Below are positions 19,895 through 47,141 of a stretch of DNA of 47,141 bases, piece by piece (positions within the stretch are counted from its first letter, which is position 1; each line of letters opens with the position of its first letter). The position numbers were made by a program, and so were the translations under genes. The stretch is from Acidobacteriota bacterium. GTDB lineage: Bacteria; Acidobacteriota; Polarisedimenticolia; J045. Below the pieces are notes generated by a model. It saw only the letters and a list, made by a program, of their open reading frames with translations, searched no databases and was not told the DNA's origin. The stretch spans positions 1-47,141 of the forward strand of contig JALUUK010000317.1 of the NCBI GenBank assembly GCA_027021395.1. Reading direction: 5' to 3'.

Positions 19895-19904
19895 GGCGCG
19901 CCTC

Positions 19905-23068: not shown

Positions 23069-23298
23069 GGTGTGAATCTCCGTAATGAGAGTTCTTGGTC
23101 GAATGCCATGCGCAGCGTGCATGGTGATGCACGACCAGGCGCGCATGCGACGCCGGGTGTTCCCCGATCCCGACCCCCGCAAGGCTCGAGCGCCGACGAA
23201 GAATCAAGGATCGGAACCATCGTGGACGGGAATCAACGCTGACGACATCCCGTGGCTCTTAGAGGATCCACAAGACATTCCCGTAGCCGGAGCCGATT

Positions 23299-30908: not shown

Positions 30909-31113
30909 GTTTCCGCCGCCACCCCCGATGGCAACCCTTGCATTCTTGCGAGAGACACGGGGACGACCTCCCGCACGGATGCAAGAGGTCGCCTCCAGGC
31001 TCTGCCGAAGGCCCCTTCTGAGCTATGAGAATGAGCATCTTAAGCTACTGAGTTTACGGTAGTTAGCATGATCTTGGCCCCGCCGGCCGCCATCGGCCGG
31101 GAATCAGGCTTAC

Positions 31114-31130
31114 TGGGCATGGATCCTGCA
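31114..31130 (+). promoter_or_regulatory. candidate sigma54 (-24/-12) promoter
   Basis: tGGGCAT-GGATC-CTGCA. GG at 31116-31117 and GC at 31128-31129 are in the canonical 12-nt register (consensus TGGCAC-N5-TTGCA). Lies 43 nt upstream of ATG 31173 and 206 nt downstream of the EBP gene. Confidence 0.5.
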
Positions 31131-31172
31131 ATAAGGGATGATGTCCGCGAACGTACCAAGGAGGTTGTTTCG

Positions 31173-32498
31173 ATGAATCGATCCAAGAGAAAGGCCCCGG
31201 CACCACGCACTCGAATCTGCCTGGCGCTACTGAGCGTGGGTCTGATCTTGATGCCCGCGGTCGGCGCTGAAGCGCCGACCGACGCCGAGGCACTGAAACG
31301 GGAATACGAGAAACTCGCTCGTGAAATGGAGGAACTTCGCGAAAAACTGGCCAAGATACAAAAGAGCATCGAAAAAGCGGCCGAGGAGAGAAAAGCAGCT
31401 TCGCAGAACGAGAACCGCAAGAGTGCCGATCAAGACCAAGATTTCGTCACCCGTGCCGAAGTCGACGAACTCAAGCAATTGGTAGAGCGTACGGCGACCT
31501 TCACCGAGCAGGACTCGGTCGTCCATCTCGGTGGCTACACGCATGTCGGTATCGCCAAGAGCGAAGGCGGCAACAGCAGTGCAACGGTGGGAGCATTCGC
31601 GCCCATCTTCCACTATCAGTACAAAGATCGTCTCTTGATGGAAACGGAACTCGAGGTTGAACTCGAAGAAAACGGAGACGTCAGGCTTGGACTCGAGTAC
31701 CTGTCTTTAGACCTCTTCCTCAACGACTATTTGGTGCTGGTCGTAGGAAAGTTCATGTCTCCGATCGGGCAGTTTCGCCAGAATCTCCATCCGTCGTGGA
31801 TCAACAAGCTTCCTTCAGCGCCCGTCGGCTTCGGCCACGATGGTGCGGCGCCGATTTCCGAAACGGGAGTGCAGTTGCGCGGTGGCGGGATGCTCGGATC
31901 CTTGCGCACGAACTTCGCGTTCTACGTTGCCAATGGTCCTGAAATCGGTCTCGAGCCTGTCGCCGGCCCCAGCCTCGGCCCGACCGGTCCGGAACTCGAA
32001 ATCAAGGCGGAAGGTCAAGCAATGGACGCCGACGGCAACAAGGCTTTCGGCGGCCGCATCGGTCTGCTGCCGAGTCCGAACTTCGAAGTCGGAATCTCCG
32101 CTGCGACCTCTCGCGTGCAATACGAGAGTGAAGCCGCTCGAGACTATGACGTCTTCGGCACCGACTTTTACTTCCATCCCCGTTTCCTCTCCAGCCTCGT
32201 ACTGAGAGGGGAATACATAAAGACGACGGTGGCGGAAGGTGGGATCACGGCTCCGGAGGCCATCAACTTGGAGGCCTGGTATGTGCAAGGCGCCTACCGC
32301 CTTCCCGGAAACTTCGAGTCGGTGATTCGCTATGGGAAATTCGATACCGGCGAGAGCGCCGTCACGCAGTGGATGCCTGGTATCAACTACTACATTGCCA
32401 ACCACATCATTGCGAAACTCGGATACGAATTCAACGACAGCAGGGATCCGGCAAATCAAGCCGATCGCATGCTGATGCAACTGAGCTACGGGTTCTAG
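31173..32498 (+). CDS. porin (OprO/P-like beta-barrel) with N-terminal coiled coil
   Basis: ATG 31173 after AAGGAGG. Signal peptide. Heptad-like EALKREYEKLAREMEELREKLAKIQKSIEKAAEE. GKFMSPIGQF motif. C-terminal ..LMQLSYGF. Confidence 0.7.
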   Translation: MNRSKRKAPAPRTRICLALLSVGLILMPAVGAEAPTDAEALKREYEKLAREMEELREKLAKIQKSIEKAAEERKAASQNENRKSADQDQDFVTRAEVDELKQLVERTATFTEQDSVVHLGGYTHVGIAKSEGGNSSATVGAFAPIFHYQYKDRLLMETELEVELEENGDVRLGLEYLSLDLFLNDYLVLVVGKFMSPIGQFRQNLHPSWINKLPSAPVGFGHDGAAPISETGVQLRGGGMLGSLRTNFAFYVANGPEIGLEPVAGPSLGPTGPELEIKAEGQAMDADGNKAFGGRIGLLPSPNFEVGISAATSRVQYESEAARDYDVFGTDFYFHPRFLSSLVLRGEYIKTTVAEGGITAPEAINLEAWYVQGAYRLPGNFESVIRYGKFDTGESAVTQWMPGINYYIANHIIAKLGYEFNDSRDPANQADRMLMQLSYGF

Positions 32499-32546
32499 AG
32501 CATGTGCGAAATACAGTGGAACTCGGAGACAACGGAGGACAAAGCG

Positions 32547-33254
32547 ATGAAGAAGAAGACGAGAGTTCGAATGACGGTTTCCCTCGTGGTCATTTCCGCC
32601 GTGTTGCTGGCGGTGGTGCCGACGGTTGCGACGAGTTCAGTGCAATCGTCATCGGCGCAGGCATCATCGGTTCAGCCATCAGCGGTTCAACCGTCCGAAA
32701 GCAACGAGATCGCAGATCCGGTTCAAGGCGCCACCCTTTGGGCGAATCACTGCGGTCGCTGCCACAATCACCGCAATCCCGGTGAATTCACCGAGGATGA
32801 ATGGCGGCCCGTGCTGGCACATATGCGAGTTCGTAGTGGACTGACCGGTCCGGAGACGAAAGATATTCTCGCCTACATGCAGCAAAGTCGTTGGGCCAAG
32901 TCGAAGCAATCTCAAAGCACGAAAGTCCCGCCGGTGACGAAGGCCGCGGAGAACAAACTCGCCAAGGCGATCGCCGATGCAGACGCCGACAACGGCAAAG
33001 AGATCTTCTCCAAGACTTGCTTCGCTTGTCATGGCATGGATGGAAAGGGCATGCTGCCCGGAATGCCGGATCTGACGGGAGTCGACAGTCCGTTGCTCAA
33101 ACCCGATGGCGTGCTGATGGAGAGCCTGACCAACGGTGTACAGCGCGAAGGCAGTGCTCTGGCCATGCCCCCCAAGGGCGGCAACCCGAATCTGAGCAAA
33201 GAAGACCTCTACGACGTATTGCGCTACATGATGAACGAGTTCAAACCCAAATAA
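32547..33254 (+). CDS. periplasmic dihaem c-type cytochrome
   Basis: ATG 32547 after GGAGGA. Signal peptide and Ser/Val/Gln-rich linker. Two CxxCH motifs (CGRCH, CFACH); second domain has distal ALAMPPKGG. Confidence 0.85.
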   Translation: MKKKTRVRMTVSLVVISAVLLAVVPTVATSSVQSSSAQASSVQPSAVQPSESNEIADPVQGATLWANHCGRCHNHRNPGEFTEDEWRPVLAHMRVRSGLTGPETKDILAYMQQSRWAKSKQSQSTKVPPVTKAAENKLAKAIADADADNGKEIFSKTCFACHGMDGKGMLPGMPDLTGVDSPLLKPDGVLMESLTNGVQREGSALAMPPKGGNPNLSKEDLYDVLRYMMNEFKPK

Positions 33255-33310: not shown

Positions 33311-33538
33311 AGTGGGTCTGCTCGGAAAAATAGCTTCATGAATGAACCGAGGATTCTCGCAGCGCTTCTTCCGATGGTCGGCGGCGTACCGGCAGATCGA
33401 CGGGTTTCTGCTGCAAGGACGAGGGATTCACCGGACATTGTCGGGCAAGGGCCATGACGAAGGCGTGAAATCCCGAGGAATCAGCGTCTACTCACGGCGA
33501 GGCGTCCTGCGGGCGGGGCGTCGGCAAGGCCTGTGCGA

Positions 33539-35020
33539 ATGAGCCCGGCGAAGGGAGAGATCGTGCGAAAAGATATCGCCGTCTTCGCGCTCGTGTCGTG
33601 CTTCTTTCTTTTCGGCGCGGCCGACGGAGCCGTGGACGAGGTCTGGGTAGTGAATCAAAATTCTCAGGATCTTGCGATCATCGATACGGCGGGAGAGGTC
33701 GTGAGCGGTCGTATCTCCCTGGGACTGGGAACGAGCGATCTTCCCTTTGCCGTCGCGTTTTCCACGGCGCCGGATGCTCAGGGCGCCTACGCCTTCGTCA
33801 CGCAGGGGCAATTCCTGCGCGTGATCGATGCCTTCAGCCGTACCGTCACACGAACTCTGAACATGGAAGACGTGCTCGGTGAGGTCTTCGAACTCCGCGG
33901 AGTGGCCGCCGGCCTGCCGATCGAGGTGCGCGACGCGCAGGGCACCGTCATTCGCTCGTTCCTGTTCGTCGGGGCGCGTCGCCAATGTTGCGATGGGAAC
34001 GCCTACTATGTGATCTTCGATCAAGAGGCACTGATCACCGGCGGGCCGGGATCGCGAGACTTGGTCGATTTTGCTCCTCTCGAGACGGGAGCTTCCACGG
34101 CGCAAAGTGTCGAGGTGATGGAAGCGCCGGGCGGTGACGAACGTTCCCGCGCGATCTTTACGGTTTATCGCGGCGCGCCCGGCGCGCCGACGCATCTGGT
34201 TGCGCACCAAGTTTTCACCGACGGGAGCGCCGCCGTTTGGCGGCACCGTGTTCTGCGCACGACGGCTGTCCCCGGAGGAACGCCGGTGTCCGACGCGATC
34301 GGCGCTTCTTCTCCGTTCCAGCGCGAAATGCAGGCCATGCCCGAAGGCGGCAGCGGAAGGATCGTCAACCTGCGCACGGGCGATTCCTGCACCATCGCGG
34401 GCGCGAACTTCGGCGCCACTTCGCTCAACGGGCCGGGACCGAATCGCCATGATTTGCTGGCGCTCGACCCGCTTGCGGGAAAGCTCTTTAGTATCGATCC
34501 GGTAGATTGCGCCGATACGCAATACACGGTGGGTGCCGAGCCTTCCGATGTGGAGCACTTGAACGTAGTGGATGGTCCGAAGGCCTACGTGTCGAATTTC
34601 GGCGACGGTAGCGTCTCGATTCTCCAAGAAGATCAAACCATCACGACGATAGAAGGAGTCGGTGATGGTCCGCGCGCTTTGGCACCTCGCCGGACCGCTC
34701 AGGCTTGCCGGATCAACAATGTGACGATCACCAAGGGAGAAGCTGATTCCAACGTGCTCAACTGGAACCAAGTGAGCTGTCCGACGGAAACTCTCTATCA
34801 GATCTGGTGCACCTGCCAAGAGCCAGGATGTCCGGTCGATTGTCAACCGCCTCTTCCACCTTCGAATCCGGAAGCCCTGACCACGACCATACAGCCTCTT
34901 CCCCCGGACGGCCCGATCGCCGAGGGGCAGTGGCTGCCGCTTGGAACCGTCGGCTGTTGCACATTCATCCATCCCGACGGTGGGTCGGCCAACATCAACT
35001 ACCTCGTCGAACCGCAGTGA
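33539..35020 (+). CDS. exported YVTN-type beta-propeller repeat protein with Cys-rich C-terminus
   Basis: Signal peptide (..KDIAVFALVSCFFLFGAADG). YVTN-like blades VWVVNQNSQDLAIIDTAGEVV, AFVTQGQFLRVIDAFS, AYVSNFGDGSVSILQ. C-terminal CPTETLYQIWCTCQEPGCPVDCQ...GCC. Start 33539 (ATG) or 33563 (GTG after GGGAGAG). Confidence 0.75.
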   Translation: MSPAKGEIVRKDIAVFALVSCFFLFGAADGAVDEVWVVNQNSQDLAIIDTAGEVVSGRISLGLGTSDLPFAVAFSTAPDAQGAYAFVTQGQFLRVIDAFSRTVTRTLNMEDVLGEVFELRGVAAGLPIEVRDAQGTVIRSFLFVGARRQCCDGNAYYVIFDQEALITGGPGSRDLVDFAPLETGASTAQSVEVMEAPGGDERSRAIFTVYRGAPGAPTHLVAHQVFTDGSAAVWRHRVLRTTAVPGGTPVSDAIGASSPFQREMQAMPEGGSGRIVNLRTGDSCTIAGANFGATSLNGPGPNRHDLLALDPLAGKLFSIDPVDCADTQYTVGAEPSDVEHLNVVDGPKAYVSNFGDGSVSILQEDQTITTIEGVGDGPRALAPRRTAQACRINNVTITKGEADSNVLNWNQVSCPTETLYQIWCTCQEPGCPVDCQPPLPPSNPEALTTTIQPLPPDGPIAEGQWLPLGTVGCCTFIHPDGGSANINYLVEPQ

Positions 35021-35056
35021 TCCCATCGCAACCTCGGAGGAACCATCGGGGGCCGC

Positions 35057-37540
35057 GTGCGGTATGCTACGAGGATCGTGAGCCCCGCAAAGACGCTCTG
35101 CCTCGCCGTTTTCGTCGTCATGGTGACGGCGGGCTTGGCCTGTCGGAATTCGGAGCCACGGAACGCTGAACCGGCACCGCCGGAGCAAGCGCCGATCGAG
35201 GAAGAGGAACGAGACCCGGTCGATCTTTCGACCTGCCCGCGAGGGTATGAGCCGTGGCTCGAGTCTCTCGAGCGCGCGCAAAAGACGAAAGGTCTACCGT
35301 CACTCGAGCAGCAACTCACAGCGATCTCGGCGCGTTGCAGCGATCAATGGGAAGCTCATTGGGCCTTGGGAGATGCGATCTTCCGTCGATTCGATTTTGC
35401 GGCTGCTCGGCCGCATCTCGAACGAGCAGCCGAAATCGCGGAAGCCGAGTCGTCGGAGATGGGGCTTGCTTGGAGTCGCTACCGCCTCGGCTTCGTCGAC
35501 TTCACCGCCGGCAAGTGGAGCCGGTCGGAATCGATGACGCGTTTCGCCATCGAGGTTTTCAGGCGACGCGGAATGATGAAAGAGGAGACCTTCGCCTGGA
35601 ACAACTTGGCGGCGGTGCTTCAAGAAAGCGGTCGTTTCGGCCAGGCACTCGAAGCGATGGACAAAACGGAGGCGGGTCTCGAGCGACTGGGATTGGCGGG
35701 CCCCGCGCGTCGCTTTGCGCAAAACAAGGCCCTTCTTCAGATCTCCCTCGGCGATGCCCATGGTCCCGAAGAGACCTTGAGCGCTCTATACGAAGAAGCA
35801 AAGCAAGCGGGAGATGGAGTTCTGCGAGATTCTTCGGCCCTTGCTCTGGCATCGCTTCATCGCCTGATCGACGCCTTCGACACGGCCGATGCCTGGTATG
35901 CCCGTGTCGGATCCGACGACACGTTGCCGGAAGCGGCGACCTTGAGCGCGCTCGGTCGCGGTCGTGTGGCGCTGCTTCGCAATGATCCCGATGCCGCGTT
36001 GATGCACCTCGATCAGGCGGCGACCATTGCGGAGAAAAACGATCTCGAGGCGCTAGTCGAGGTCATCGACGCCTTCGCCGGAGCGGCTCTGTTGCGGGTC
36101 GGGCGTTCGGCAGAGGGAACGGCTCGACTCAGGCGTCTCATGGACTCCGATGCCGACGCCCGTCCGGAGTTGGCTTGGCTGACGCGTTGGCTGATGGGCC
36201 GGGAGTTCGAACGCAGAGGCGACGAACGCAGCTTACCGCTGCTGAAAGAGGCTCTCTCACGTCTGGAGACCGAGGGGCTCAAGCTCGATCGCAGCGCCGA
36301 GGGCATGCGATTCTTGCGCGAGCGCATCGAAGTCTACATCGATCTGGCCGCCGCATACGCCCGGCGCGAGGGATACGAAAACGAGATCGCCGACATCATG
36401 TTTCGCGCACACGCTCGCTCTCTCGCGAAGATCTCCGCACACGAGGCGAATTCAAAGGCAGGGGCTCCGGCGACGATTCAAGCGTCGATGCCCGAAGATG
36501 CCTTGATCATTTCCTACCTCTTCGGACGAGAGCAGGGCGTCGCGCTGGCCATCACGCGCGACGTCCGGCGCACCTTCGCCATCCCCGGCCGCGACACGCT
36601 CTCGAAACCGGTCAAGGCCTATCGCGCGGCGTTGATCCGACCGCTAAAGAGTTCCGAAGCGCGCGCGCACCCGCTCGAGGACTTTCTACGGTCGGTGGAA
36701 TGGGGGATGAAGGTGAGTGATGCGCTGCTCGCACCGGTAGCCGATCTGCTCGACCGCTCTTCGCAGATCTTCATCGTTCCTGATGGGGAACTCGCCCTTC
36801 TACCCTTCGCCGCGTTGATTCGGACTCCGGTGGAGGGTTCGAAGTGGCCGTCCTTTCTAGGAGCAACGCACGACGTGGCGGTGTTGCCGGTGCTCTCCAC
36901 GCCGGCAATAGAGAGTGCGGGGCGCTATCCCATGCTTCTCGTCGGAGATGCCATCGCCGATGAGGGCGGCGAGTTTCCTGCTCTCGATCGCTCGGCGGCC
37001 GAAGTTGCAGGGATCTTCGAGCAATGGGAAGGCGGCGGCGAAGTCGACAAAGTCGTATCGGAGGAAGTGACCGTATCGAAACTCGGCGATGGCCGGCTCG
37101 CTCGATATCGGACGATTCATTTTGCGACGCACGCGGTGGCCTCGACGCGTGATCCTCGCAAGTGCGCCGTGATCTGCTCGCGCGGCGAGCGCTTCGGTTT
37201 CGACCGAATCGCCGCTCTTCACCTCGATCGCGCTCTCGTCGTCTTGTCGTCTTGCCGCGGCGGCGAGGGCGAGATCATTCCCGGCGAAGGCATCGTCGGG
37301 CTCGGCTGGGCATTTCTTTCGGCGGGCGCATCGGCTACGGTCACCAGCCTTTGGCAAGTCGAAGATGATTCGGCGGCGCGATTGATGTTGGAATTTCATC
37401 GCCGGCTTCGGCTCGGAAGCAGTGCGACACGGGCCCTAGCAGCCGCCGGTCGCCTCCTGGCGCGTGAGAGAGCACACCCTGCTTATTGGGCGCCTTTCGT
37501 CATTGCGCTCAACACCGAGGCGAGGACGGAGGGGTCATGA
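35057..37540 (+). CDS. TPR-repeat CHAT-domain (caspase-like) protease with N-terminal signal/anchor
   Basis: C-terminal CHAT signature IHFATHAV (His) ... LVVLSSCRGGEG (Cys) ... GIVGLGWAFLSAGASATVTSLWQVEDD. TPR-like helical repeats in the middle. Hydrophobic N-terminus LCLAVFVVMVTAGLAC. Confidence 0.9.
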   Translation: MRYATRIVSPAKTLCLAVFVVMVTAGLACRNSEPRNAEPAPPEQAPIEEEERDPVDLSTCPRGYEPWLESLERAQKTKGLPSLEQQLTAISARCSDQWEAHWALGDAIFRRFDFAAARPHLERAAEIAEAESSEMGLAWSRYRLGFVDFTAGKWSRSESMTRFAIEVFRRRGMMKEETFAWNNLAAVLQESGRFGQALEAMDKTEAGLERLGLAGPARRFAQNKALLQISLGDAHGPEETLSALYEEAKQAGDGVLRDSSALALASLHRLIDAFDTADAWYARVGSDDTLPEAATLSALGRGRVALLRNDPDAALMHLDQAATIAEKNDLEALVEVIDAFAGAALLRVGRSAEGTARLRRLMDSDADARPELAWLTRWLMGREFERRGDERSLPLLKEALSRLETEGLKLDRSAEGMRFLRERIEVYIDLAAAYARREGYENEIADIMFRAHARSLAKISAHEANSKAGAPATIQASMPEDALIISYLFGREQGVALAITRDVRRTFAIPGRDTLSKPVKAYRAALIRPLKSSEARAHPLEDFLRSVEWGMKVSDALLAPVADLLDRSSQIFIVPDGELALLPFAALIRTPVEGSKWPSFLGATHDVAVLPVLSTPAIESAGRYPMLLVGDAIADEGGEFPALDRSAAEVAGIFEQWEGGGEVDKVVSEEVTVSKLGDGRLARYRTIHFATHAVASTRDPRKCAVICSRGERFGFDRIAALHLDRALVVLSSCRGGEGEIIPGEGIVGLGWAFLSAGASATVTSLWQVEDDSAARLMLEFHRRLRLGSSATRALAAAGRLLARERAHPAYWAPFVIALNTEARTEGS

Positions 37541-37755: not shown

Positions 37756-38226
37756 ATGAACGACGAGCGATGTGAGCACGGCATCACCCACGCACTCGAA
37801 GAACACCAAGAGATTCGTCAGAGCAACAAGGACTTGCTGGACTATCTCGACCGGCCTCGCCCCGAGGTTTCGGCCAGCGAATCCTGGGAATGGGCGGTCT
37901 CGCTCCAGGAAAAGCTTACGACGCTGCATGCGCGCGTAAGCCGACACTTTCGTGCGGAAGAAGGCGAAGTTTTGGGAAAGTTGCGCGACAAGCACCCGCA
38001 CGCTGCAGGAAGCCTAGACGCTCTGCTCGCCGAACATGGTGAAATGTTGAAGGAACTTCGTTCGTTGATCGATGCGGCCATGACCTACGCAGAGGCTCGG
38101 CAGCCAGCCGATCCATGCTTGCGGGCGCGCACGAGGCGCCTGTTGGTGGCCATGTCCGAGCACGAAGCCAAGGAAGTCAATTTGATTCAGGAGCTGATGT
38201 TTACCGACATCGGTACGGGTGAGTGA
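37756..38226 (+). CDS. hemerythrin-like (HHE cation-binding) domain protein
   Basis: Four helix-type His/Glu motifs: HALEEHQEI, HARVSRHFRAEEGEVL, LLAEHGEMLKEL, MSEHEAKEVNLI. Its stop overlaps the korA ATG (TGATG). Confidence 0.7.
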   Translation: MNDERCEHGITHALEEHQEIRQSNKDLLDYLDRPRPEVSASESWEWAVSLQEKLTTLHARVSRHFRAEEGEVLGKLRDKHPHAAGSLDALLAEHGEMLKELRSLIDAAMTYAEARQPADPCLRARTRRLLVAMSEHEAKEVNLIQELMFTDIGTGE

Positions 38227-40094
38227 TGGAACTCATAGTCAAGACCGTCAAGGAAAGCATCTTGGAGTTCGTCTCCGATTCAGGGGAAGGCGCGCAAACC
38301 GCGGGCCAGATGTTCGGCACCGTCAGCGCCAAGATGGGCAACGGCGTCTGGACGGTGGAGATCATTCCCGCCGAGATCGAACCCCCGCACCGTTCGCGAT
38401 CGGGTGCGAGCGGCAATCGCATTCGTATTGCCACCGGCCCCGTGACCAACATGGGAGAGACCGCCGACGTTGTCGTGGCTTTCAACGAGCAGGTCCTCTA
38501 CAGCCGCACGGATGTTCATGCATTGCGTCCGGGAACGATCATCCTTCTCGAGGACAAGTGGAAGGATGACGCCGATCCCGAGATTCGCGAGCAGTACAAA
38601 ACCGCGCTCGCAGAATTCGAAGAGCTAGGCTTCGTGGTCTTCGAGTTTCCGCTGGAAAAGGAGTGCAAGAAGATTCTTCCCGACCCGCGGCGCGGCAAGA
38701 ACATGTGGGCTCTCGGATTGGTCGCTCGCATCTACCAGCGTGATATGTCGATCATTCTCGAGGAGATTCGGCGCAAGTTCACTCGCAAGAGTCAGAAGCT
38801 CGTCGACGTCAACCAGCAACTCGTGCGAGCGGGCTATGACTGGGCTGCAGAGAATGTTCCCTATCGCTTCGAAGTGCCCGGAAGCAAACCCGACCAAGAC
38901 ATGGTGGTCATGAACGGAAATCAGGCGGCGGCGCTTGGAACGATGGCTGCGGGCATCGAGGTTTGCTCGATGTATCCGATCACGCCGGCGACGTCGGTTT
39001 CTCACCAACTTGCCGCTATATTCCATGAAGTCGGCGGATTCGTGCATCAAGCAGAGGATGAAATCTCCGCCATCGGCTACGCGCTCGGTGCATCCTATGC
39101 CGGCAAGACGGCGATGACGGTGACCTCCGGTCCGGGTTTGGCGCTCAAGACCGAATTCCTCGCGCTCGCGGTGCAGGCCGAACTTCCGCTCGTCTTGCTG
39201 CTCGTGCAGCGCGGTGGTCCCTCGACCGGTTTGCCGACGCGCGTCGAACAAGGCGATCTTCTTTCGTCGATATTCGCCGCGCCCGGAGATGCGCCGCGAA
39301 TCGTCTTGGCGGCATCCGATATCGAGGAGTGCTTTCACTTCATGATCACCGCACGCAAACTGGCGGAGACCTTCCGCACGCCGGTGATCGTGCTCACCGA
39401 TGCCAACTTGGCAACCGGACAACAGCCGTTCAAGCGACCGGTCATGTTGGAAGAGTGGATCTCGCCGCCCATCGATCAAAGCGATTGGGATCCGAACGTC
39501 GAACCTTACGACTGGGACGCGTCAACCGGAGTTTCCGAACGACCGATTCCGGGCCAGAAGGGGGGCGAGTACGTTCTGACCGGTCTTGCGCACAACGAGA
39601 AGAGCCAAGTGGCCTACGAATCCTGCGTCAACCAGCGCTCGATGGAAGCGAGGAGCCGCAAGCTGATCGCGCTGCAAAAATCGCTCAAGCCTCCCAAGAT
39701 CCACGGCGACGAGGAAGGCGATCTCTTGGTGGTTTCTTGGGGATCGACTCGCGGCGCGATCGAGGAAGCGGTCGATAGAATCCGCGCCGAAGGCGCGAAG
39801 GTTTCTTCCCTGACCTTGCGCTTTCTCTCACCGCTCGAGCCCGGGCTCGATGCCATCTTCAAGCGCTTCAAGAAAGTGATGACGGTGGAAGTGAACTACA
39901 GCGACGATCTCGACGATGGGTTCGTCACCGAAGAATCCAGGCGCTACGCCCAGCTCGCTTGGTTGCTGCGGGCGAAGACATTGATCGACATCGACTGCTG
40001 GTCGCGGGTTTACGGTATTCCGCTCGCTCCCGGATTGGTCGAAGAAGCCGTGCGTGCACGGTTGAGCGCGCTCAAGACGGCGAAGGCATCTTAG
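38226..40094 (+). CDS. korA: 2-oxoacid:ferredoxin oxidoreductase alpha subunit (gamma-alpha fusion, KorA-type)
   Basis: N-terminal gamma-like domain (GEGAQTAGQMFG), YPITPATSVSHQL, EDEISAIGYALGASYAGKTAMTVTSGPGLALK, QRGGPSTGLPT. GTG 38223 is an alternative start. Confidence 0.9.
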   Translation: MELIVKTVKESILEFVSDSGEGAQTAGQMFGTVSAKMGNGVWTVEIIPAEIEPPHRSRSGASGNRIRIATGPVTNMGETADVVVAFNEQVLYSRTDVHALRPGTIILLEDKWKDDADPEIREQYKTALAEFEELGFVVFEFPLEKECKKILPDPRRGKNMWALGLVARIYQRDMSIILEEIRRKFTRKSQKLVDVNQQLVRAGYDWAAENVPYRFEVPGSKPDQDMVVMNGNQAAALGTMAAGIEVCSMYPITPATSVSHQLAAIFHEVGGFVHQAEDEISAIGYALGASYAGKTAMTVTSGPGLALKTEFLALAVQAELPLVLLLVQRGGPSTGLPTRVEQGDLLSSIFAAPGDAPRIVLAASDIEECFHFMITARKLAETFRTPVIVLTDANLATGQQPFKRPVMLEEWISPPIDQSDWDPNVEPYDWDASTGVSERPIPGQKGGEYVLTGLAHNEKSQVAYESCVNQRSMEARSRKLIALQKSLKPPKIHGDEEGDLLVVSWGSTRGAIEEAVDRIRAEGAKVSSLTLRFLSPLEPGLDAIFKRFKKVMTVEVNYSDDLDDGFVTEESRRYAQLAWLLRAKTLIDIDCWSRVYGIPLAPGLVEEAVRARLSALKTAKAS

Positions 40095-40122: not shown

Positions 40123-41082
40123 ATGACGATGTACGGAATCAAGAAAGACTGGGATCTCGAGCCGCTGCCGCGCTGCCTCGTGATGGAGGACTACCAGGCC
40201 GCGGAACCGCGCTGGTGCGCGGGTTGCGGCGACTTTGCGGTGCTTACTGCATTGCAACGCCTCGCACGGGACAAGCAGCTTGCGCCGGAAAAAACCGTCT
40301 TCGTTTCGGGCATCGGCTGCTCGAGTCGATTGCCGCACTACATGAAAACCTACGGATTCCACGGTCTACATGGAAGACCCTTGCCGGTCGCCTCGGGCAT
40401 CCGTGCCCGCCGACCGGATCTCGACATTTTCGTGATCACCGGAGACGGTGACTGCTGCGCCATCGGCACGGCTCATTGGATTCACGCCATCCGCTACAAC
40501 ATGAAGATGACGGTCTTGCTTTTGGACAACAACATCTACGGATTGACCAAGATGCAGACCTCTCCGACGACGCCCAAGGGCCACTACTCGAATACGCAGA
40601 CGACCGGCGCCTATCTTTCGCCGATCAATCCACTGACCGTCACCTTGGGGATCACGAATCGTTCTTTCGTGGCGCAGACCGTGGATTGGTATCCGGCGCA
40701 TGTGTACGACACGCTGAAAGCGGCGCACGAGCATCCGGGGTTGGCGTTTGTGAGAATCCTCCAGCGCTGCCCGCATTTCATGCCCGGCGAGTTCGATGCC
40801 ATCCAACAAGATGCGACCAAGATCCTAGCGCTCGAGCATCCCGATGGAATCCCGATCGATGATGGTCTCGCGCGCGTGCTCACGGAGCGCAAGGAGCACG
40901 ATCCGAGGAACTTGGGATCGGCACTCGAAGTGGCCGGTCGCGAGGACGTTCTGCCGATCGGCTTGTTCTATCGCGATCTCGAGGCCGAACGCTACGATGA
41001 CTTTGCCGCGGCCGGCCTAGGAATGAGCGCAAAAGAAAAAGTTGCCGGAGCGCAGAGAGCCATGGACCGATTTCTGATCTGA
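40123..41082 (+). CDS. korB: 2-oxoacid:ferredoxin oxidoreductase beta subunit (ThDP-binding, KorB-type)
   Basis: WCAGCGDFAVL, GIGCSSRLPHY, ThDP motif ITGDGDCCAIG ... LLLDNNIYGLTKMQTSPT. GGGAG lies 4 nt upstream of the ATG. Confidence 0.9.
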   Translation: MTMYGIKKDWDLEPLPRCLVMEDYQAAEPRWCAGCGDFAVLTALQRLARDKQLAPEKTVFVSGIGCSSRLPHYMKTYGFHGLHGRPLPVASGIRARRPDLDIFVITGDGDCCAIGTAHWIHAIRYNMKMTVLLLDNNIYGLTKMQTSPTTPKGHYSNTQTTGAYLSPINPLTVTLGITNRSFVAQTVDWYPAHVYDTLKAAHEHPGLAFVRILQRCPHFMPGEFDAIQQDATKILALEHPDGIPIDDGLARVLTERKEHDPRNLGSALEVAGREDVLPIGLFYRDLEAERYDDFAAAGLGMSAKEKVAGAQRAMDRFLI

Positions 41083-41141: not shown

Positions 41142-44100
41142 ATGGCAGAACCCGGATCCTGGTTTGCCGGCGAAGGCCGAGCGGCCGTCAACCTTTTCGA
41201 GCGAATGATATGCGGGCGGGGTGCCGTATTCGATCCCGCAACGGCCGAGGGCATGGCCATGGTCTCGCGCCGCAGCGCGGTCTTGCTACCGGAAGAGCAA
41301 GGCATCGCATTTTCCCGGCCGGTCTCCGGCTTGGCGGTGGTGTATCACGAGATCGCTCCGCCGGCAGAGTCACGCGTCGATGGAGCGACGGTCCGCCTCG
41401 TGGCGAGCACGATCCAAGAGGCGATCGACCACTGCCTCGTCGCACACTGGCTGGTGCGCAAACGGCGGATTCCGGTCGTCTGCGCGCTTCCTGCGCAAGT
41501 TGCCGATCGCATGCACTTCGTGGCACTGCCTTCACGAGAGATCATCGATGCTCTGCTCGAATCGGAAAACGTCGAGAGTGCATCCGGCGGGATGCCGGCG
41601 AGTTCACTCGAGGACGATCTTCAAGCCGCCTTCGATGCGGTCGGCAACGCCACCGGCCGATCCTTGGCGATGACCGCAGCGGACGATCTAGTCGAAGAGG
41701 AGGACGATCGGGCAGCAGGCAAGTGTCTTTCGATCGCGGCGTGGCCGCGCCGGCACTTTGCCTTGCCGCTGATGCTCGATGTATGCGCACGATTGAGAGA
41801 GCACCGCTCCTTGATGCTCGATCGCCACGCGGACCGTGACGGGGGGGTCGAAGCTCTGGTTCTTCGCGAGACGAAATGCCGTCTCGCGCAGGCCAAGGAT
41901 ATCGACGTGCTCCTGGTCTCCGAACCGGCGTATTGCGACTTCGAGTCGATCGGTGAGCAACTTCGTGATGGTGCGGTGGTCATTCTGATCACCATGGCTG
42001 CGGCGGATGGCGATGCGCTCGACGATGCCGGGGCCGCCGCGCTGGCATCCAAGAAAGCGAGAATCGTACGGATTGATCCTTCTGCTGCGCCATCGTTCGG
42101 TAGCGCCGACGAGTTCGCGGTGTTGCAGGGAGCCTTGCTCGCGGGAATCGCGGCAGCGGCGCCGTGGCTCGAAGAGGCTTGCAGCAGGGCGGGCGACGCC
42201 GATGCATCCGGTGCATGGGGCTACGCCGCGTTGAAAGCAGGCCTTCGAGGCGATGTGCTCGAGGCCGAGATCGAAGCCGATGAGCGCTCGCCGAGCGCAT
42301 GGGCCGAGCAAGGTGTGCTCTTTCATCGCACCGGTCGCGGCAAGCGCTGGCGTGGTGAGCCCTTGGCTTCCGCTCCGCTCTGGCCCAAAGCTCTCGCGCC
42401 GTTGAGTCGAGCGGATTCGCTGTGGAGCGGATTTCCTCTATGGATCCGGAGGGAGGACGGTGCCGAGGTTGAAGTCCTTCCTTGTGCCGACAAACTCGAT
42501 GAAGCATTCGATCACCTCGAGAAGAGCGGCAAGAACATCGCGCTGCTGCGCGAGCATCGACCGCGTCTTCTACGCGAAATCTACATGGTGACGGTCGGCC
42601 GAAGTGCCCTGCCGTTTGAAAAAGTTCTCGACGATGCTGCCGAAGGGTTTCTTTCGCGCTTCGAAATGAGCACGGCGGCTCGCAACGAACTCGAATCGCA
42701 GTTGCGCGAAGTACTCGACGTGATGCGTTCCCACGACGACGTCATCGGTCTGAGCCGACACTGTGTGGTCGATCTTCACGCGGTGGTCGTCGGGCACGAA
42801 CGCGACGAATGTCGCCGGAAGCTTAGAAAGAACGTCGCTCGCCTCGCTTCCCAACTTCGAGAAATGCTCGATTTGGACACGAGCCATTCGCCCAAGGGAC
42901 GGGCCGCGTCTTCGCTCTCGCCGACGCTCGGCGGAGTGACCGGAGTCTTTCTCGATGCCGAGGCGCTCTCGGCGGTCTTACCCGAGCATCGCGGATCGCA
43001 GCATCTCGGCAAAGAGCGTCGCGCGCGCATGTCTGATGCTCTCGAAGCGCTCGAGGCCTACCTCTCCCGTGATCCGACGGATGATGCCCCACGCGTAATC
43101 TATCGTGAGGGGGTCTTCAAAGCCGAGGAGATTCCACACACGGCCTACCGTTTCGAGCATGCGCAGCCGGCATCCGCGGCTCTCGGCGTATTCGAGGGCC
43201 TCGCAGCCGAAATGGAGGCGCTCTTTCGCGCGACGCGCGTGGCACGTCTGGAAATCGAAGGCGACTACGATTCGGTGCGACACGATGATGCCATCGCATC
43301 CTTGACCTGGTCCTCTTTCAGCGAGGAAGAGGTGCGGGCCATCCCGCAAGTCATCGTGCTCGAGACGGTCGCAGGTTTCGGCGGTCCGGCTCTGGCCTCT
43401 TTTTCGGATCTCTTGCGTTCGGGAAGACCGATTCAAGTGTTGGTCGTCGAGGAGCTTCTCGAAGATCTCGGAAGCGCGAGTGCGGAGTTGATGAGCCGCT
43501 ATCACGCAGGCTTGGCCTATCTTGCCGTGGCGCACCGCGAGGCCTTCGTCGCGAGGACCACGCCGGCTCACCCCAAACAGCTTTGCGAGAGCTTGCATCG
43601 CGCGGGCAAAACGCTTCGACCGGCCTTGGTCTTGACGTCGATCCCGAGCCGCGACGCCGTCATCGATTCGGCGCTCGAACTCGCTGCGGCTTTTCATGCG
43701 CGTGCGGCGTCGGTCTATACCTACGACCCCGACGCGGGAGAATCTTGGGCCGATTGCTTCGATCTATCGGACAATCCCGACCCTGATCGAGTCTGGCCGC
43801 GCATCGCGATAGGCCGAGACGTCGCCGAAGACACGGAAGCTACGGTGACGTTGGCCGACGTGATGGCCATGGACCTGCGCTATCGATCGCATTTTAGGGT
43901 CTTGCCGCCCGATGCCTGGAGCGACGAGCAGATCGAAATCGCGACTTTCATCGAATCCTGGGCGGAGTCCTCCGACCATCGCGTGCCTTTCATTTGGATC
44001 GAAGATTCCGAAGGCCGGAAGCAACGCGCAATCGTGACCCGCGAAGTGGCGCTCTTCTGTCGCGATAGGGCGCGCGCTTGGCGTGTGCTGCAGGAAGTCG

Positions 44101-44687
44101 CAGGAACCGACAGCGAATACGTTCGCCGCGCCGTGCGCGAGGCGCGCCGCACGGCAGAGGATGAGACCCGTGAGGCGCTCGATGCCGCCAAAGCGCGGCA
44201 TGAGGACGAAATCGAAGAACTTCGCATGCGTGCGGCGAGCGAAGCCGTCGATCGTCTCGTCGGGGTGCTCACCGGTAGCGGAGCGCCTGTTCCTCTCGGC
44301 GATCTCGGTTCGTGGGATGCAGCACCTCCGCCGACCTCGCCGAAAGCGCTCGACACTCCCAAACCGGCGGAAAGCGAGGCCGAGGACGATACTCCGGCGC
44401 AGGCCGCGGAAGCAGCGGTCGATGATGAAATCGCCGGCTTTGACGATCCTTATATCGATTCCGCGTTGTGTACGACGTGCAATGAGTGCACCAATCTCAA
44501 TGGCATGCTCTTCAAGTACAACGACAACAAGCAAGCCGAGATTGCCGATCCCGCAGCGGGCACCTTCGAGCAATTGGTCATGGCTGCCGAGAAATGCCCC
44601 GTACGCTGCATTCATCCCGGTGTTCCGCGTGCCGGCGACGAGACGGCCACCGACGAGATGATCGCGCGTGCCGCGCCGTTCAACTGA
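41142..44687 (+). CDS. PFOR-derived 1181-aa protein with degenerate ThDP region and C-terminal single-cluster ferredoxin domain
   Basis: Segments collinear with pyruvate:ferredoxin oxidoreductase. Domain I-like ASTIQEAIDHCLVAHWLVRKRRIPVV. Gamma/domain III-like DIDVLLVSEP...ARIVRIDPSA...AVLQGALLAGIA. Domain VI/VII-like LAYLAVAHREAFVARTTPAHPKQLCESLHRAGKTLRPALVLTSIPS and SVYTYDPDAG..CFDLSDNP. C-terminal YIDSALCTTCNECTNLNG..AAEKCPVRCIHPG. Confidence 0.8.
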   Translation: MAEPGSWFAGEGRAAVNLFERMICGRGAVFDPATAEGMAMVSRRSAVLLPEEQGIAFSRPVSGLAVVYHEIAPPAESRVDGATVRLVASTIQEAIDHCLVAHWLVRKRRIPVVCALPAQVADRMHFVALPSREIIDALLESENVESASGGMPASSLEDDLQAAFDAVGNATGRSLAMTAADDLVEEEDDRAAGKCLSIAAWPRRHFALPLMLDVCARLREHRSLMLDRHADRDGGVEALVLRETKCRLAQAKDIDVLLVSEPAYCDFESIGEQLRDGAVVILITMAAADGDALDDAGAAALASKKARIVRIDPSAAPSFGSADEFAVLQGALLAGIAAAAPWLEEACSRAGDADASGAWGYAALKAGLRGDVLEAEIEADERSPSAWAEQGVLFHRTGRGKRWRGEPLASAPLWPKALAPLSRADSLWSGFPLWIRREDGAEVEVLPCADKLDEAFDHLEKSGKNIALLREHRPRLLREIYMVTVGRSALPFEKVLDDAAEGFLSRFEMSTAARNELESQLREVLDVMRSHDDVIGLSRHCVVDLHAVVVGHERDECRRKLRKNVARLASQLREMLDLDTSHSPKGRAASSLSPTLGGVTGVFLDAEALSAVLPEHRGSQHLGKERRARMSDALEALEAYLSRDPTDDAPRVIYREGVFKAEEIPHTAYRFEHAQPASAALGVFEGLAAEMEALFRATRVARLEIEGDYDSVRHDDAIASLTWSSFSEEEVRAIPQVIVLETVAGFGGPALASFSDLLRSGRPIQVLVVEELLEDLGSASAELMSRYHAGLAYLAVAHREAFVARTTPAHPKQLCESLHRAGKTLRPALVLTSIPSRDAVIDSALELAAAFHARAASVYTYDPDAGESWADCFDLSDNPDPDRVWPRIAIGRDVAEDTEATVTLADVMAMDLRYRSHFRVLPPDAWSDEQIEIATFIESWAESSDHRVPFIWIEDSEGRKQRAIVTREVALFCRDRARAWRVLQEVAGTDSEYVRRAVREARRTAEDETREALDAAKARHEDEIEELRMRAASEAVDRLVGVLTGSGAPVPLGDLGSWDAAPPPTSPKALDTPKPAESEAEDDTPAQAAEAAVDDEIAGFDDPYIDSALCTTCNECTNLNGMLFKYNDNKQAEIADPAAGTFEQLVMAAEKCPVRCIHPGVPRAGDETATDEMIARAAPFN

Positions 44688-44695
44688 CGGAGACG

Positions 44696-45529
44696 ATGAA
44701 CGAGATTCTCATCGGTAGCGCAGTCATGTTCGGCGTCGCCGGATTCTTCGGTGTCGTTCTGGCCGTGGCCTATCGCAAGCTGAGCGTGGAAGAAGATCCT
44801 CGCATCGAGGTGGTCGAGAACATGTTGCCGGGAACGAATTGCGGTGCGTGCGGCCAGCCCGGATGCCATGCTTTCGCGGAGGCTTTGTGTCGAGGGGAAA
44901 CGGCGCCGGGCATCTGCACCGTCAGCGCTCCGGAAGCCATCGAAGACATGGCGACTTTTCTCGGGGTTGCGGCGGGAACGCAGGAAAAACGGGTGGCCCG
45001 GTTGCATTGTGCGGGCGGAGCATCGTCGGTCAAACAACTCGCGGCATACCGTGGCATCGCTTCCTGCCGCGCGGCCTTCGTCGTCAACGGCGGGGGGAGA
45101 GCTTGCGCTTGGGGATGCCTCGGGCTCGGGGACTGCGAGACGGCATGCACCTTCGATGCCATCGCCATGAACGTCGAGAACCTTCCGAAGGTCGATGTCG
45201 ATCTCTGCACGGCGTGCAACGACTGTGTGGAAGTCTGTCCTCTCGATCTCTTCACGCTAGAGCCCGTTTCGCATCACGTGCTGGTACAGTGCGCTTCTCC
45301 GCTCATCGGTGATGCCGCCCGTGCAAGCTGCAAAGTGGCCTGCGATGCCTGCGGTCGTTGCGCGCTCGATGCCGCCGAAGGAAGCATCGAGATGGCCGGC
45401 GGACTTCCGCAGGTGGTTTTGCCGAGCAAGGCCGGTCGGGAAAGCACCTACCGCTGCCCGACGGGTGCGATTCAGTACATCGAAGGCAATCAATTCGACG
45501 ATATCGAGATCGGAGTTCGCGATGCATGA
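44696..45529 (+). CDS. RnfB-like membrane-anchored Fe-S (polyferredoxin) protein
   Basis: ATG 44696 within ORF 44486... N-terminal TM ILIGSAVMFGVAGFFGVVLAVAY. RnfB-type LPGTNCGACGQPGCHAFAEAL. Further clusters CLGLGDCETAC, CTACNDCVEVCP, CDACGRC..YRCPTGAI. Confidence 0.85.
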   Translation: MNEILIGSAVMFGVAGFFGVVLAVAYRKLSVEEDPRIEVVENMLPGTNCGACGQPGCHAFAEALCRGETAPGICTVSAPEAIEDMATFLGVAAGTQEKRVARLHCAGGASSVKQLAAYRGIASCRAAFVVNGGGRACAWGCLGLGDCETACTFDAIAMNVENLPKVDVDLCTACNDCVEVCPLDLFTLEPVSHHVLVQCASPLIGDAARASCKVACDACGRCALDAAEGSIEMAGGLPQVVLPSKAGRESTYRCPTGAIQYIEGNQFDDIEIGVRDA

Positions 45530-47141
45530 CGACCCTTCGGCCCGAGGTTGGCTACAGGGGCTCTTCGGCGCTAGGAAATCCTCGAAGGCGACGGGAGAGG
45601 TTCTGCTGCGCACGGGGATCGAAGCAGTGTTGCAAGTCGAAGAAGCCGTCGCCGAAGTGCTCCACCACGATCGGGACGAAGACCCCTCGGCACTGCTGGC
45701 TAGGGCCACTGGATCGGCTCTCATGGGCACGCGTACGGCGGTGATCATCGAACGCAGCGACGTGGATCTTCGCCTGCAGCTCGTCGAAGCGGTGCGTCAA
45801 TGCGTACCGTTGGTAGTGCACGTCGTTCTCGATACCCACAACGACGACGAGAGCGGCCTAGCGGCATTGCTCGATAGCGGCGCGGTCGTTTTCTCTGCGA
45901 GCACGGTGCAGCAGGCGGCGGATCTTTCGCTGGTGGCGCACCGTGTCGCCGAAACGGGGCTGATACCCGTCGTCGTGACGATGGATGCGCGCGAGACGGC
46001 CGAGTCTCTACAGGATGTCGTTCTTCCGATCGACGGGGAATACGTGAACTATCTCGGCGCTCCGGACGACACGGTTGCGTGTCCGACGCCCGCGCAGATC
46101 ATGCTCTTCGGCGACCGGCGACGGCGGCTGCCGCGTTGGTTCAGCCTGGATAGTCCAAGCGCTCATGCCGTTCCCGCGGCAGGAGAAGACCGCTCGGCGC
46201 AGATGGCCGCCCGCCATTTCTTTTTCGATGCGCATCTCGGCGACCACATCGACGAAGCGATGCGCGAGATCACGTCGCTCACGGGGCGCCTTCTTGCCAC
46301 CGTGCTTTCCTGCGCAGCAAAGGGTGCGTCCAAGGCCCCGTCGCAGGTGCTCTTCGCCCATGGATCACTGGCCGACTTGGCGCGTGCCACTCTTCTTCAC
46401 GCAGAATTCCGCGAGTCGAAGAAGGTGGGTTTGATCACTCTCGTCGCTTTGCGTCCTTTCCCCGAAAGTGCCTTGCGGAAGCAATGCACGGTCGTCGAAA
46501 TCGCAGCGATTCTCGAGCGTTCTCATGCGCGATTGGCGGCCCCGCACTGGCATGCGGACTTGCGCGCCGCACTTACGGGTGGACCGATCACCTGGACCAC
46601 GGCTCATTTTCCATCGGGGAGTCAAGCGATCACCCCCGGGCACGTACTCGCAGCCGTCGACAATCTGAATCGGCGCGATCGTCGCCGAGACGAAATTTGG
46701 CTGGGATTGACGCCACCGACCGTCGAGACCCGTTTTCCAAAGCGGGAAGTCTTGCTCAATCGTATCGCGCGCGAGTATCCGGACTTGTCGACGGTCCTCG
46801 ACGAATCTACGGCGACGGTCGACCTACGTCCTGCGGGTGCCGTGACCTTGGCTGTTTGCGCGCGCGAAACGGATCTTCCGGCGGAGGTCTTGCCAGAGAT
46901 CGTGCGCGCGGCTTTTTCGTCGAAGGGACCCTATGCCAGAACTCGTACGACGAGACCGCGGCCGGAATACTGGACGGCGCATATCACTCTCGCCGGCGCT
47001 TCATTCGACGATCCAGGCGATGCGGTGCCGGTCGATGGGATCTTGCTGGCGGGCCTCGATTTTCCGCCTTCGCTCGACCTGCCGGCGGAAGTCTGTGAAG
47101 ACGCCTTTCTACTCGTCGCCACCGACAAGGATTCCAAAGAG
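45522..47141 (+). CDS. second PFOR-like protein, 3'-truncated by the window end (540 codons visible)
   Basis: Not in the ORF track because no stop is reached. Hand translation from ATG 45522 (ATGCATGA overlap with the previous stop) hit no in-frame stop: I checked codon by codon to about 45,910 and read the rest in frame less rigorously. Motifs: MHDDPSARGW..TGIEAVLQVEE..ASTVQQAADLSLVAHRVAETGLIPVVVTMDARE..SLTGRLL..KVGLITLVALRPFPESAL.., collinear with PFOR domains I-II. Confidence 0.75.
   Translation, partial: MHDDPSARGWLQGLFGARKSSKATGEVLLRTGIEAVLQVEEAVAEVLHHDRDEDPSALLARATGSALMGTRTAVIIERSDVDLRLQLVEAVRQCVPLVVHVVLDTHNDDESGLAALLDSGAVVFSASTVQQAADLSLVAHRVAETGLIPVVVTMDARETAESLQDVVLPIDGEYVNYLGAPDDTVACPTPAQIMLFGDRRRRLPRWFSLDSPSAHAVPAAGEDRSAQMAARHFFFDAHLGDHIDEAMREITSLTGRLLATVLSCAAKGASKAPSQVLFAHGSLADLARATLLHAEFRESKKVGLITLVALRPFPESALRKQCTVVEIAAILERSHARLAAPHWHADLRAALTGGPITWTTAHFPSGSQAITPGHVLAAVDNLNRRDRRRDEIWLGLTPPTVETRFPKREVLLNRIAREYPDLSTVLDESTATVDLRPAGAVTLAVCARETDLPAEVLPEIVRAAFSSKGPYARTRTTRPRPEYWTAHITLAGASFDDPGDAVPVDGILLAGLDFPPSLDLPAEVCEDAFLLVATDKDSKE

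Follow-up and report, generated by a model that had tools for sequence, protein, structure and literature searches.

Pyruvate:ferredoxin oxidoreductases (PFORs) and other 2-oxoacid:ferredoxin oxidoreductases (OFORs) are, together with the Rnf complex, central to low-potential electron metabolism, including the reverse tricarboxylic acid cycle, nitrogen fixation, and anaerobic energy conservation. The channelling of ferredoxin between PFOR or OFOR and Rnf is normally left to diffusion. Here we describe a gene cluster of an Acidobacteriota bacterium (assembly GCA_027021395.1, contig JALUUK010000317.1, positions 1 to 47,141 of the forward strand; this whole stretch of 47,141 nucleotides is referred to below as the window) in which the open reading frame (ORF) at 41142-44687 (+) encodes protein A, a PFOR homologue that has lost its catalytic sites and has kept a tethered C-terminal ferredoxin, and in which a second PFOR-like ORF, beginning at 45522 (+), encodes protein B.

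Among described systems, single-chain PFORs (Desulfovibrio africanus, 1B0P; Moorella thermoacetica, 6CIN) provide the best fold matches to protein A and share with it the colinear domain order I, III, IV/V, VI, the C-terminal part of domain VI being recognizable in sequence through a set of long PFORs (P0003-5, 1647-1703 aa). Unlike single-chain PFORs, protein A is without the thiamine diphosphate (ThDP) site, the proximal cluster, the domain-V clusters, and domain II, and it adds an extension, a linker, and a ferredoxin. The long PFORs resemble protein A in their helical inserts, C-terminal alpha/beta domain, helix, linker, Fer4_13 domain, and Kor/Rnf neighborhood, but they keep every catalytic and cluster motif, whereas protein A keeps the terminal ferredoxin alone. 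KorAB-type 2-oxoglutarate:ferredoxin oxidoreductases (OGORs) and OFORs paired with a soluble ferredoxin (Magnetococcus marinus, 6N2N; Sulfolobus, 5B46; H. thermophilus Kor/Fd1) follow the same logic that we propose below, in which electrons would pass from a beta-subunit cluster to a small single-cluster ferredoxin. In contrast to those systems, the ferredoxin of protein A is covalently tethered to a dead PFOR body of ~1000 aa encoded in the same operon, and the solved KorAB structures contain no third subunit of this kind. As for Rnf (RnfABCDGE), the gene for protein A lies directly upstream of rnfB in an rnf-linked cluster and ferredoxin is the Rnf substrate, but protein A itself has no Rnf homologue: Pfam and NCBIfam searches gave it no match to an Rnf family, whether RnfA, B, C, D, E, or G. 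A full-text literature search turned up no dead PFOR, no PFOR-like gene in rnf operons, and no KorAB-linked large ferredoxin, although absence there is not proof of novelty; as far as the literature was searched, described Rnf operons hold no PFOR-like genes.

PFOR ancestry and lost cofactor sites of protein A

The ORF has an ATG start with a GAGGG Shine-Dalgarno-like site upstream and encodes 1181 aa. Curated PFOR models (Pfam POR_N, POR, and TPP_enzyme_C; NCBIfam TIGR02176) gave no match to protein A at E<=0.1. Across the whole protein, Pfam returned Fer4_13 only, plus a sub-threshold DUF2239 match (Pfam/NCBIfam), and sequence searches of the PDB with phmmer and with a 30-sequence family profile (hmmsearch) recovered D. 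africanus ferredoxin I (Fd I) and spurious designed helical repeats, and no PFOR. The long PFORs supply the link. These are bona fide PFORs with all Pfam PFOR domains present (P0003, the only one searched against the PDB, matches the Moorella PFOR at E 7e-80), and they also bear a C-terminal extension ending in a Fer4_13 domain. Protein A is 32% identical to them over 583 aa (aa 659-1181 of protein A, E 1e-70), with a second, weak match between its aa 10-139 and their domain I, and the hhalign alignment between the A family and the long PFORs runs colinearly from aa 31 to aa 1137 (Prob 100, E 3e-97).

An earlier note on this DNA, made from the letters alone, had called protein A a PFOR homologue and had suggested a structural comparison with the D. 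africanus enzyme. The AlphaFold2 (AF2) model, built with 30 homologues (predicted local distance difference test score, pLDDT, 79.9; predicted TM-score, pTM, 0.72), finds the Moorella and D. africanus PFORs as its best PDB matches in Foldseek (6cin/6cio/1b0p, E 1.7e-13 to 2.6e-10, prob 1.0; the match to 6cio is at E 1.7e-13), followed by OFOR beta subunits (TMt 0.41-0.46). Fold and profile-profile alignment to the long PFORs both support the homology. While the matches themselves speak for PFOR, the global TM-score of the model to PFOR is only ~0.21, and the domains are therefore differently arranged or some are missing. We conclude that protein A is a PFOR homologue by descent, an ancestry visible only via transitive profile comparison and fold. 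Its membership of the PFOR superfamily is one of descent only, with every catalytic hallmark of the superfamily missing.

The anatomy of protein A, with residues mapped by hhalign of the A family to the long PFOR P0003 (whose numbering serves as reference), is as follows.

41142-44687 (+): protein A, a PFOR paralogue that is predicted to be catalytically dead and has a ferredoxin tethered at its C-terminus (Pfam, BLASTP, HMMER, hhalign, AlphaFold2, Foldseek)
41154-41561 (+): domain-I remnant, aa 5-140 (BLASTP and hhalign to P0003 residues 53-211)
41709-42197 (+): degenerate domain-III (gamma) remnant, aa 190-352 (hhalign to P0003 ~550-700)
42306-42746 (+): domain IV/V remnant, aa 389-535 (hhalign residue map)
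42747-43916 (+): degenerate domain VI, aa 536-925 (hhalign map; Foldseek to OFOR beta subunits)
43917-44276 (+): clade-specific extension, aa 926-1045, comprising a small alpha/beta domain and then a helix of ~50 residues (shared with P0003-5; AF2)
44277-44441 (+): Pro/Ala/acidic linker, aa 1046-1100, ~55 residues (AlphaFold2 pLDDT <50)
44442-44684 (+): single-cluster ferredoxin domain, aa 1101-1181 (Fer4_13, invariant Cys, Foldseek)

Protein A begins downstream of the YPITPS position, and the conserved Glu of domain I (P0003 E80) aligns with A28; the short family forms of ~800 aa are missing the domain-I region. Domain II is deleted in protein A and kept in a 1334-aa relative (P0002), such that Pfam PFOR_II matches P0002 and not protein A. 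Of the first Fe-S motif of domain V, P0003 C788 aligns with D439 and the remainder is deleted; the second motif has been deleted with ~100 flanking residues at the 529/530 junction, and the clade-specific helical insert of the long PFORs (P0003 805-890) is retained in aa 389-535. Within domain VI, the proximal-cluster Cys of P0003 (C1002, C1005, C1112, and C1316) align with V534, L537, V658, and S836, the ThDP motif GDG (G1203-D1204-G1205) aligns with T742-V743-A744, and N1237 with L776. The absence of GDG..N, the domain-I Glu, YPITPS, the proximal Cys, and the domain-V motifs extends to the family as a whole (consensus of 30 members).

ThDP enzymes require a GDG..N Mg-diphosphate site and an activating Glu, and for this reason protein A cannot be a ThDP enzyme. 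Having neither ThDP site nor proximal cluster, protein A offers no ThDP to wire and therefore cannot be an oxidoreductase alone. To judge from the aligned residues, its body has lost the entire PFOR cofactor set (ThDP, the proximal cluster, and both domain-V [4Fe-4S] clusters), and we regard protein A as a predicted pseudoenzyme, not a rewired enzyme. An identity as the equivalent of a delta subunit was also considered and was rejected because the domain-V remnant is without clusters.

These results revise the earlier picture of the middle of the protein, which had been taken for a novel insert of ~380 aa. The multiple alignment suggested alongside it was made against the long PFORs and did map the lost Cys ligands, but it refutes the insert: aa ~389-735 are colinear (hhalign) with known PFOR domains, namely IV, V, and the first part of VI. 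Helical insertions within this region also occur in intact PFORs (P0003 805-890 and 1013-1090), and its Fe-S motifs are deleted or substituted. The description of aa 350-735 as Leu/Glu/Arg/Ala-rich and free of known motifs holds, in that Pfam and NCBIfam searches of these residues gave no match, yet their composition (A 13.5%, L 11.4%, R 10.1%, E 10.1%) is hardly unlike that of the whole protein. Other observations of the earlier note stand. Protein A has 19 Cys, and its sole CxxCxxC...CP motif is formed by C1110/C1113/C1116...C1152-P, plus C1156 (nt 44469-44609); a scan of the whole 1181-aa sequence found no Cys cluster outside the C-terminus, and the residue map likewise places no two-cluster ferredoxin in the middle. 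The view that a PFOR scaffold has been repurposed is supported. What that note had not seen is that the losses extend to the ThDP site and the proximal cluster and that the gene belongs to a conserved KorA-KorB-A-RnfB-B-Rnf cluster.

Beyond the degenerate domain VI, the extension is predicted with high confidence (AF2 pLDDT >90; the C-terminal part was also folded alone). In a structure search of its separate model against the PDB, the ferredoxin alone was matched, and the alpha/beta domain and helix were without structural relative. The acidic/Pro linker already noticed ahead of the ferredoxin (aa 1046-1100) is predicted to be disordered (AlphaFold2). The ferredoxin itself matches Pfam Fer4_13 over aa 1105-1158 (29.3 bits vs a cut-off of 24.5), its putative cluster ligands C1110, C1113, C1116, and C1152, as well as C1156, are invariant in 30 family members, and it is 50-63% identical to the ferredoxins of the long PFORs P0003-5. 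Foldseek places it closest to D. africanus Fd I (1fxr_A; TMt 0.84, root-mean-square deviation 1.9 A over 60 columns), and the fold also resembles ferredoxins of Pyrococcus, Thermotoga, and H. thermophilus (Fd1). By ligand pattern, score, and fold, the C-terminal domain is thus a predicted ferredoxin of the [4Fe-4S] type.

The family and its gene clusters

Exhaustive searching of 1.84 billion representatives with HMMER returned an A family of 1829 cluster representatives, 1398 of them with E<1e-10 and 823 with E<1e-30. Word-indexed protein searches with the full protein, the family alignment, and the core alignment gave 4-5 matches each; low counts from such searches with Ala/Leu/Arg-rich queries are not readable as rarity, and here they mark a sensitivity limit, given that the exhaustive search found 1829. 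The family is widespread yet unrecognized, comprising at least 800 clusters at 50% identity. Its members are found in metagenome-assembled genomes (MAGs) of Acidobacteriota, Myxococcota, Deltaproteobacteria, Opitutales, Betaproteobacteria (Casimicrobiaceae and others), Xanthobacteraceae, and Eisenbacteria, and their database names are 'ferredoxin' or 'hypothetical protein' only.

Two length classes occur, one of ~1200-1400 aa and one of ~800-850 aa; the short class spans aa ~390-1181 only, with domains I-III wholly absent. Conservation climbs from the N- to the C-terminus. Identity relative to the window protein is 22% in the domain-III remnant, 24% in the domain IV/V remnant, 39% in domain VI, 43% in the extension, 23% in the linker, and 69% in the ferredoxin, which is the best-conserved part; N-terminal remnants occur in only 13 of 29 aligned members. 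Invariant residues of the core are R699, H714, W723, E730, H798-R799-E800, R854, and N878, most of which are common to active long PFORs.

In the window, protein A is flanked by the following genes.

37756-38226 (+): hemerythrin-domain gene (Pfam PF01814, E 9e-9), overlapping the korA start by 4 nt
38223-40094 (+): KorA-type 2-oxoacid:acceptor oxidoreductase alpha subunit, a gamma+alpha fusion with domains III, I, and II (Pfam POR, POR_N, PFOR_II)
40123-41082 (+): intact KorB-type beta subunit (Pfam TPP_enzyme_C, PFO_beta_C)
44696-45529 (+): RnfB-like Fe-S subunit (Pfam FeS, Fer4; NCBIfam RnfB models), starting 8 nt past the stop of the A gene
45522-47141 (+): 5' part of the gene for protein B, the frame remaining open to the window end (weak POR_N and PFOR_II matches), overlapping the rnfB stop by 8 nt

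The resulting order is hemerythrin, KorA, KorB, A, RnfB, B, with a 59-nt gap between korB and A, an 8-nt gap between A and rnfB, and an 8-nt overlap between rnfB and B. KorA scores 526 bits against NCBIfam TIGR03710 (cut-off 482.75). KorB carries GDGD..DNNIYGLTK and the cluster Cys of CAGCG, GIGCSS, and RCPHF, and it matches the Magnetococcus OGOR beta subunit (6n2n_B) at E 1e-45 with the motifs aligned.

This arrangement recurs in a survey of 35 A-type loci, a few of which are duplicates. KorB lies directly upstream of A in all 25 loci whose upstream flank reaches 3.2 kb or more, and RnfB directly downstream in 18 of the 27 whose downstream flank reaches 1 kb or more; a divergent RnfB-B pair is present in three further loci. 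Long contigs (L001, L028, L033, L035, L047, L057, and others) show the full order KorA-KorB-A-RnfB-B-RnfC-D-G-E-A, and the usual cluster order is hemerythrin-KorA-KorB-A-RnfB-B-RnfCDGEA. A hemerythrin homologue is found upstream of korA in eight related loci, and its recurrence suggests oxygen sensing or protection for Fe-S enzymes.

Protein B was compared in 10 loci that encode it at full length (~1400 aa). Both domain-V CxxCxxCxxxCP motifs are kept; YPITPS, the Glu, and GDG..N are lost, the four proximal Cys have become E, S, x, and S, and the protein ends before the linker and ferredoxin. Judged by these motifs, protein B is a second degenerate PFOR paralogue, left with only the two domain-V [4Fe-4S] motifs. 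Proteins A and B are each nearer to the long PFORs than to one another.

Apparently intact counterparts were found at three loci, where the long PFORs all sit between rnfB and rnfC of complete rnf operons, an arrangement with a tethered ferredoxin for which no description was found in the literature. Two of the three clusters also hold KorA-KorB followed by a small protein, miniA (327-340 aa).

L003 8001-13067, L106 10001-14944, and L107 10001-15112: long PFORs of 1650-1700 aa with large helical inserts, a tethered C-terminal ferredoxin, and all catalytic and cluster motifs
L003 6144-7127 and L107 8118-9140: miniA, between korB and rnfB, without Pfam match

The miniA protein is a remote relative of aa 555-891 of protein A (Prob 95.6, E 1e-8) and has no ferredoxin; its direct match to the long PFORs is weak (Prob 17%, E 0.0014), such that its PFOR link rests on the A family. 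The third cluster, L106, has RnfB-PFOR-RnfC without KorAB and also without miniA. Given that the intact PFOR in the B slot carries a ferredoxin and miniA has none, there is exactly one extension-ferredoxin module per cluster type.

A different partner is found in 17 proteobacterial loci, which encode NfnA-like, NfnB-like, KorA, KorB, and a short A, and which often continue with a GltD-like flavoprotein bearing two Fer4 motifs and a second OFOR. In the betaproteobacterial MAG loci L006-L023 (e.g. L020 2162-15280), A is short (~750 aa) and the Nfn-like genes, a soluble ferredoxin:NAD(P) system, replace Rnf; in some of them the flavoprotein is of 673 aa and the second OFOR is an alpha/beta pair. 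Azoarcus evansii reportedly has a 2-oxoglutarate:NADP+ oxidoreductase, KorABC, made of a KorAB core and an extra component, KorC, which couples the oxidation of 2-oxoglutarate to a pyridine nucleotide and is said to be a flavoprotein and not a PFOR-derived ferredoxin carrier. That enzyme may be comparable in outcome to the betaproteobacterial Nfn-like/KorAB/A clusters. As a rule, KorAB-A has one of two ferredoxin:NAD(P) oxidoreductase systems as its neighbor, Rnf or an Nfn-like one.

Elsewhere in the window, a TPR and CHAT-domain protein of 827 aa (35057-37540, +) lies directly upstream of the hemerythrin-kor cluster, preceded by two overlapping long ORFs (33488-35281, -, 597 aa; 33533-35020, +, 495 aa) that have no Pfam match and of which either may be the coding one. 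The stretch 27673-33254 (+) pairs a PAS histidine kinase with a sigma-54 response regulator, after which come a porin O/P-like protein and a protein with a cytochrome c domain (Pfam Cytochrome_CBB3 / Cytochrom_C, weak DHC), and 16643-23182 (-) holds a CusCBA-type heavy-metal RND efflux operon, which encodes a pump of the AcrB family, an adaptor of the HlyD type bearing three HMBD repeats, and an outer-membrane factor. Because GC content is even (0.54-0.63) across the window, an origin from a phage or mobile element was rejected, and a promoter/terminator scan of 37-47 kb gave nothing exceeding shuffled background.

Proposed role and competing explanations

With slightly more belief than doubt, we favor the reading that protein A descends from a 'long' PFOR, is non-catalytic, and serves as an adaptor or accessory subunit whose ferredoxin is tethered between KorAB and a ferredoxin:NAD(P) oxidoreductase. 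The observations beneath it are the homology, the loss of sites, the retention and conservation of the ferredoxin, the gene linkage, and the complementary Fe-S retention in protein B. In such an arrangement, the dead PFOR body of protein A would dock on KorAB and/or protein B, and the ferredoxin would swing on its linker of ~55 residues between the KorB cluster and an acceptor. The acceptor would be RnfB in the case of the window, probably reached via the two clusters kept by protein B, and an Nfn-like enzyme in Betaproteobacteria. Electrons could then pass in either direction between 2-oxoacid and NAD(P) independently of any free ferredoxin pool, and synthesis would be possible in reverse.

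Several points weigh against this adaptor role. The physical docking, the electron route, and its direction are inferred. The cluster of the ferredoxin may be a [4Fe-4S] or a [3Fe-4S] one. KorB falls below the TIGR02177 cut-off (NCBIfam), and the substrate of KorAB is thus not established. The domain-VI-like core and the extension, at 39-43% identity, are conserved above the apparent need of a passive tether. Neither Rnf nor Nfn lies within 10 kb of A in some loci (Opitutales L004, L045/46, L048), and the betaproteobacterial loci are closely akin and therefore amount to few independent observations.

The adaptor reading can be carried further, into a form that we regard as possible but doubtful, in which KorAB, A, B, and RnfABCDGE would form one membrane-bound supercomplex; the fixed clusters of B and the swinging ferredoxin of A would together make an Fe-S wire without free ferredoxin. 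If this were true, 2-oxoacid oxidation would be directly linked to NAD+ reduction and ion pumping, in reverse mode the ion gradient would drive 2-oxoacid synthesis, and clusters with an intact long PFOR would act likewise on pyruvate.

It is also conceivable, though in our estimate unlikely, that A and B form a pseudo-PFOR heterodimer that replaced an ancestral long-PFOR homodimer as the electron-input module of Rnf, with a link to KorAB that is metabolic or operonic and not physical. Such a dimer would fit the intact long PFORs that fill the B slot between rnfB and rnfC in L003, L106, and L107, the complementary Fe-S modules kept by A and B, the closer kinship of each to long PFORs than to the other, and the KorAB-free RnfB-PFOR-RnfC of L106. 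It sits badly, however, with the short A proteins of Betaproteobacteria and Opitutales, which have KorAB but neither B nor Rnf close by, with the position of A or miniA after KorB in every informative locus, and with the presence of miniA only where KorAB is present.

Still less probable is that the dead body has been neofunctionalized in a non-redox role, either as a cap shielding an oxygen-sensitive KorB cluster or as a ligand/CoA sensor regulating KorAB, the ferredoxin then being a redox sensor. Domain VII acts as a shielding cap in D. africanus PFOR, and hemerythrins have reportedly been found to protect Por and Oor in Campylobacter; strong conservation of the domain-VI-like core with its invariant residues, the hemerythrin gene upstream of korA in eight loci, and the persistence of a ferredoxin-less miniA beside KorB are consistent with such a function. 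However, most invariant residues are common to active long PFORs and therefore may merely maintain the fold, the best-conserved part is a ferredoxin on a long linker, which suits a shuttle over a fixed sensor, and Rnf or Nfn is consistently adjacent. Both the heterodimer and the cap or sensor are partly compatible with the adaptor reading.

That protein A is still an active 2-oxoacid oxidoreductase, with an unconventional cofactor arrangement or electron path, is hard to credit: the overall PFOR fold is kept, but GDG..N, the domain-I Glu, YPITPS, the four proximal Cys, and both domain-V motifs are absent family-wide, and the short forms are without domains I-III. An assembly chimera or decaying pseudogene, to which the varying N-terminal remnant, the missing domain II, and the existence of short forms might point, can safely be set aside, since the frame is uninterrupted over 1181 codons, the same colinear architecture and gene order recur in ~30 independent metagenome and MAG contigs from different studies (33-46% identity), 823 representatives match at E<1e-30, and AF2 folds the protein with confidence (pLDDT 79.9, pTM 0.72).

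Meaning for the family and for electron transfer

If the adaptor reading is true, the A proteins would be the first recognized family of catalytically dead PFOR paralogues. In annotation, their genes fit neither PFOR, having no catalysis, nor plain ferredoxin. The analysis exposes a conserved Kor-pseudoPFOR-Rnf cluster of 10-11 genes, together with a related architecture in which an intact PFOR lies between rnfB and rnfC. If protein A does tether its ferredoxin as proposed, a 2-oxoacid oxidoreductase and a ferredoxin:NAD(P) oxidoreductase may be hard-wired to each other in some bacteria, which the hemerythrin gene marks as probably microaerobic.

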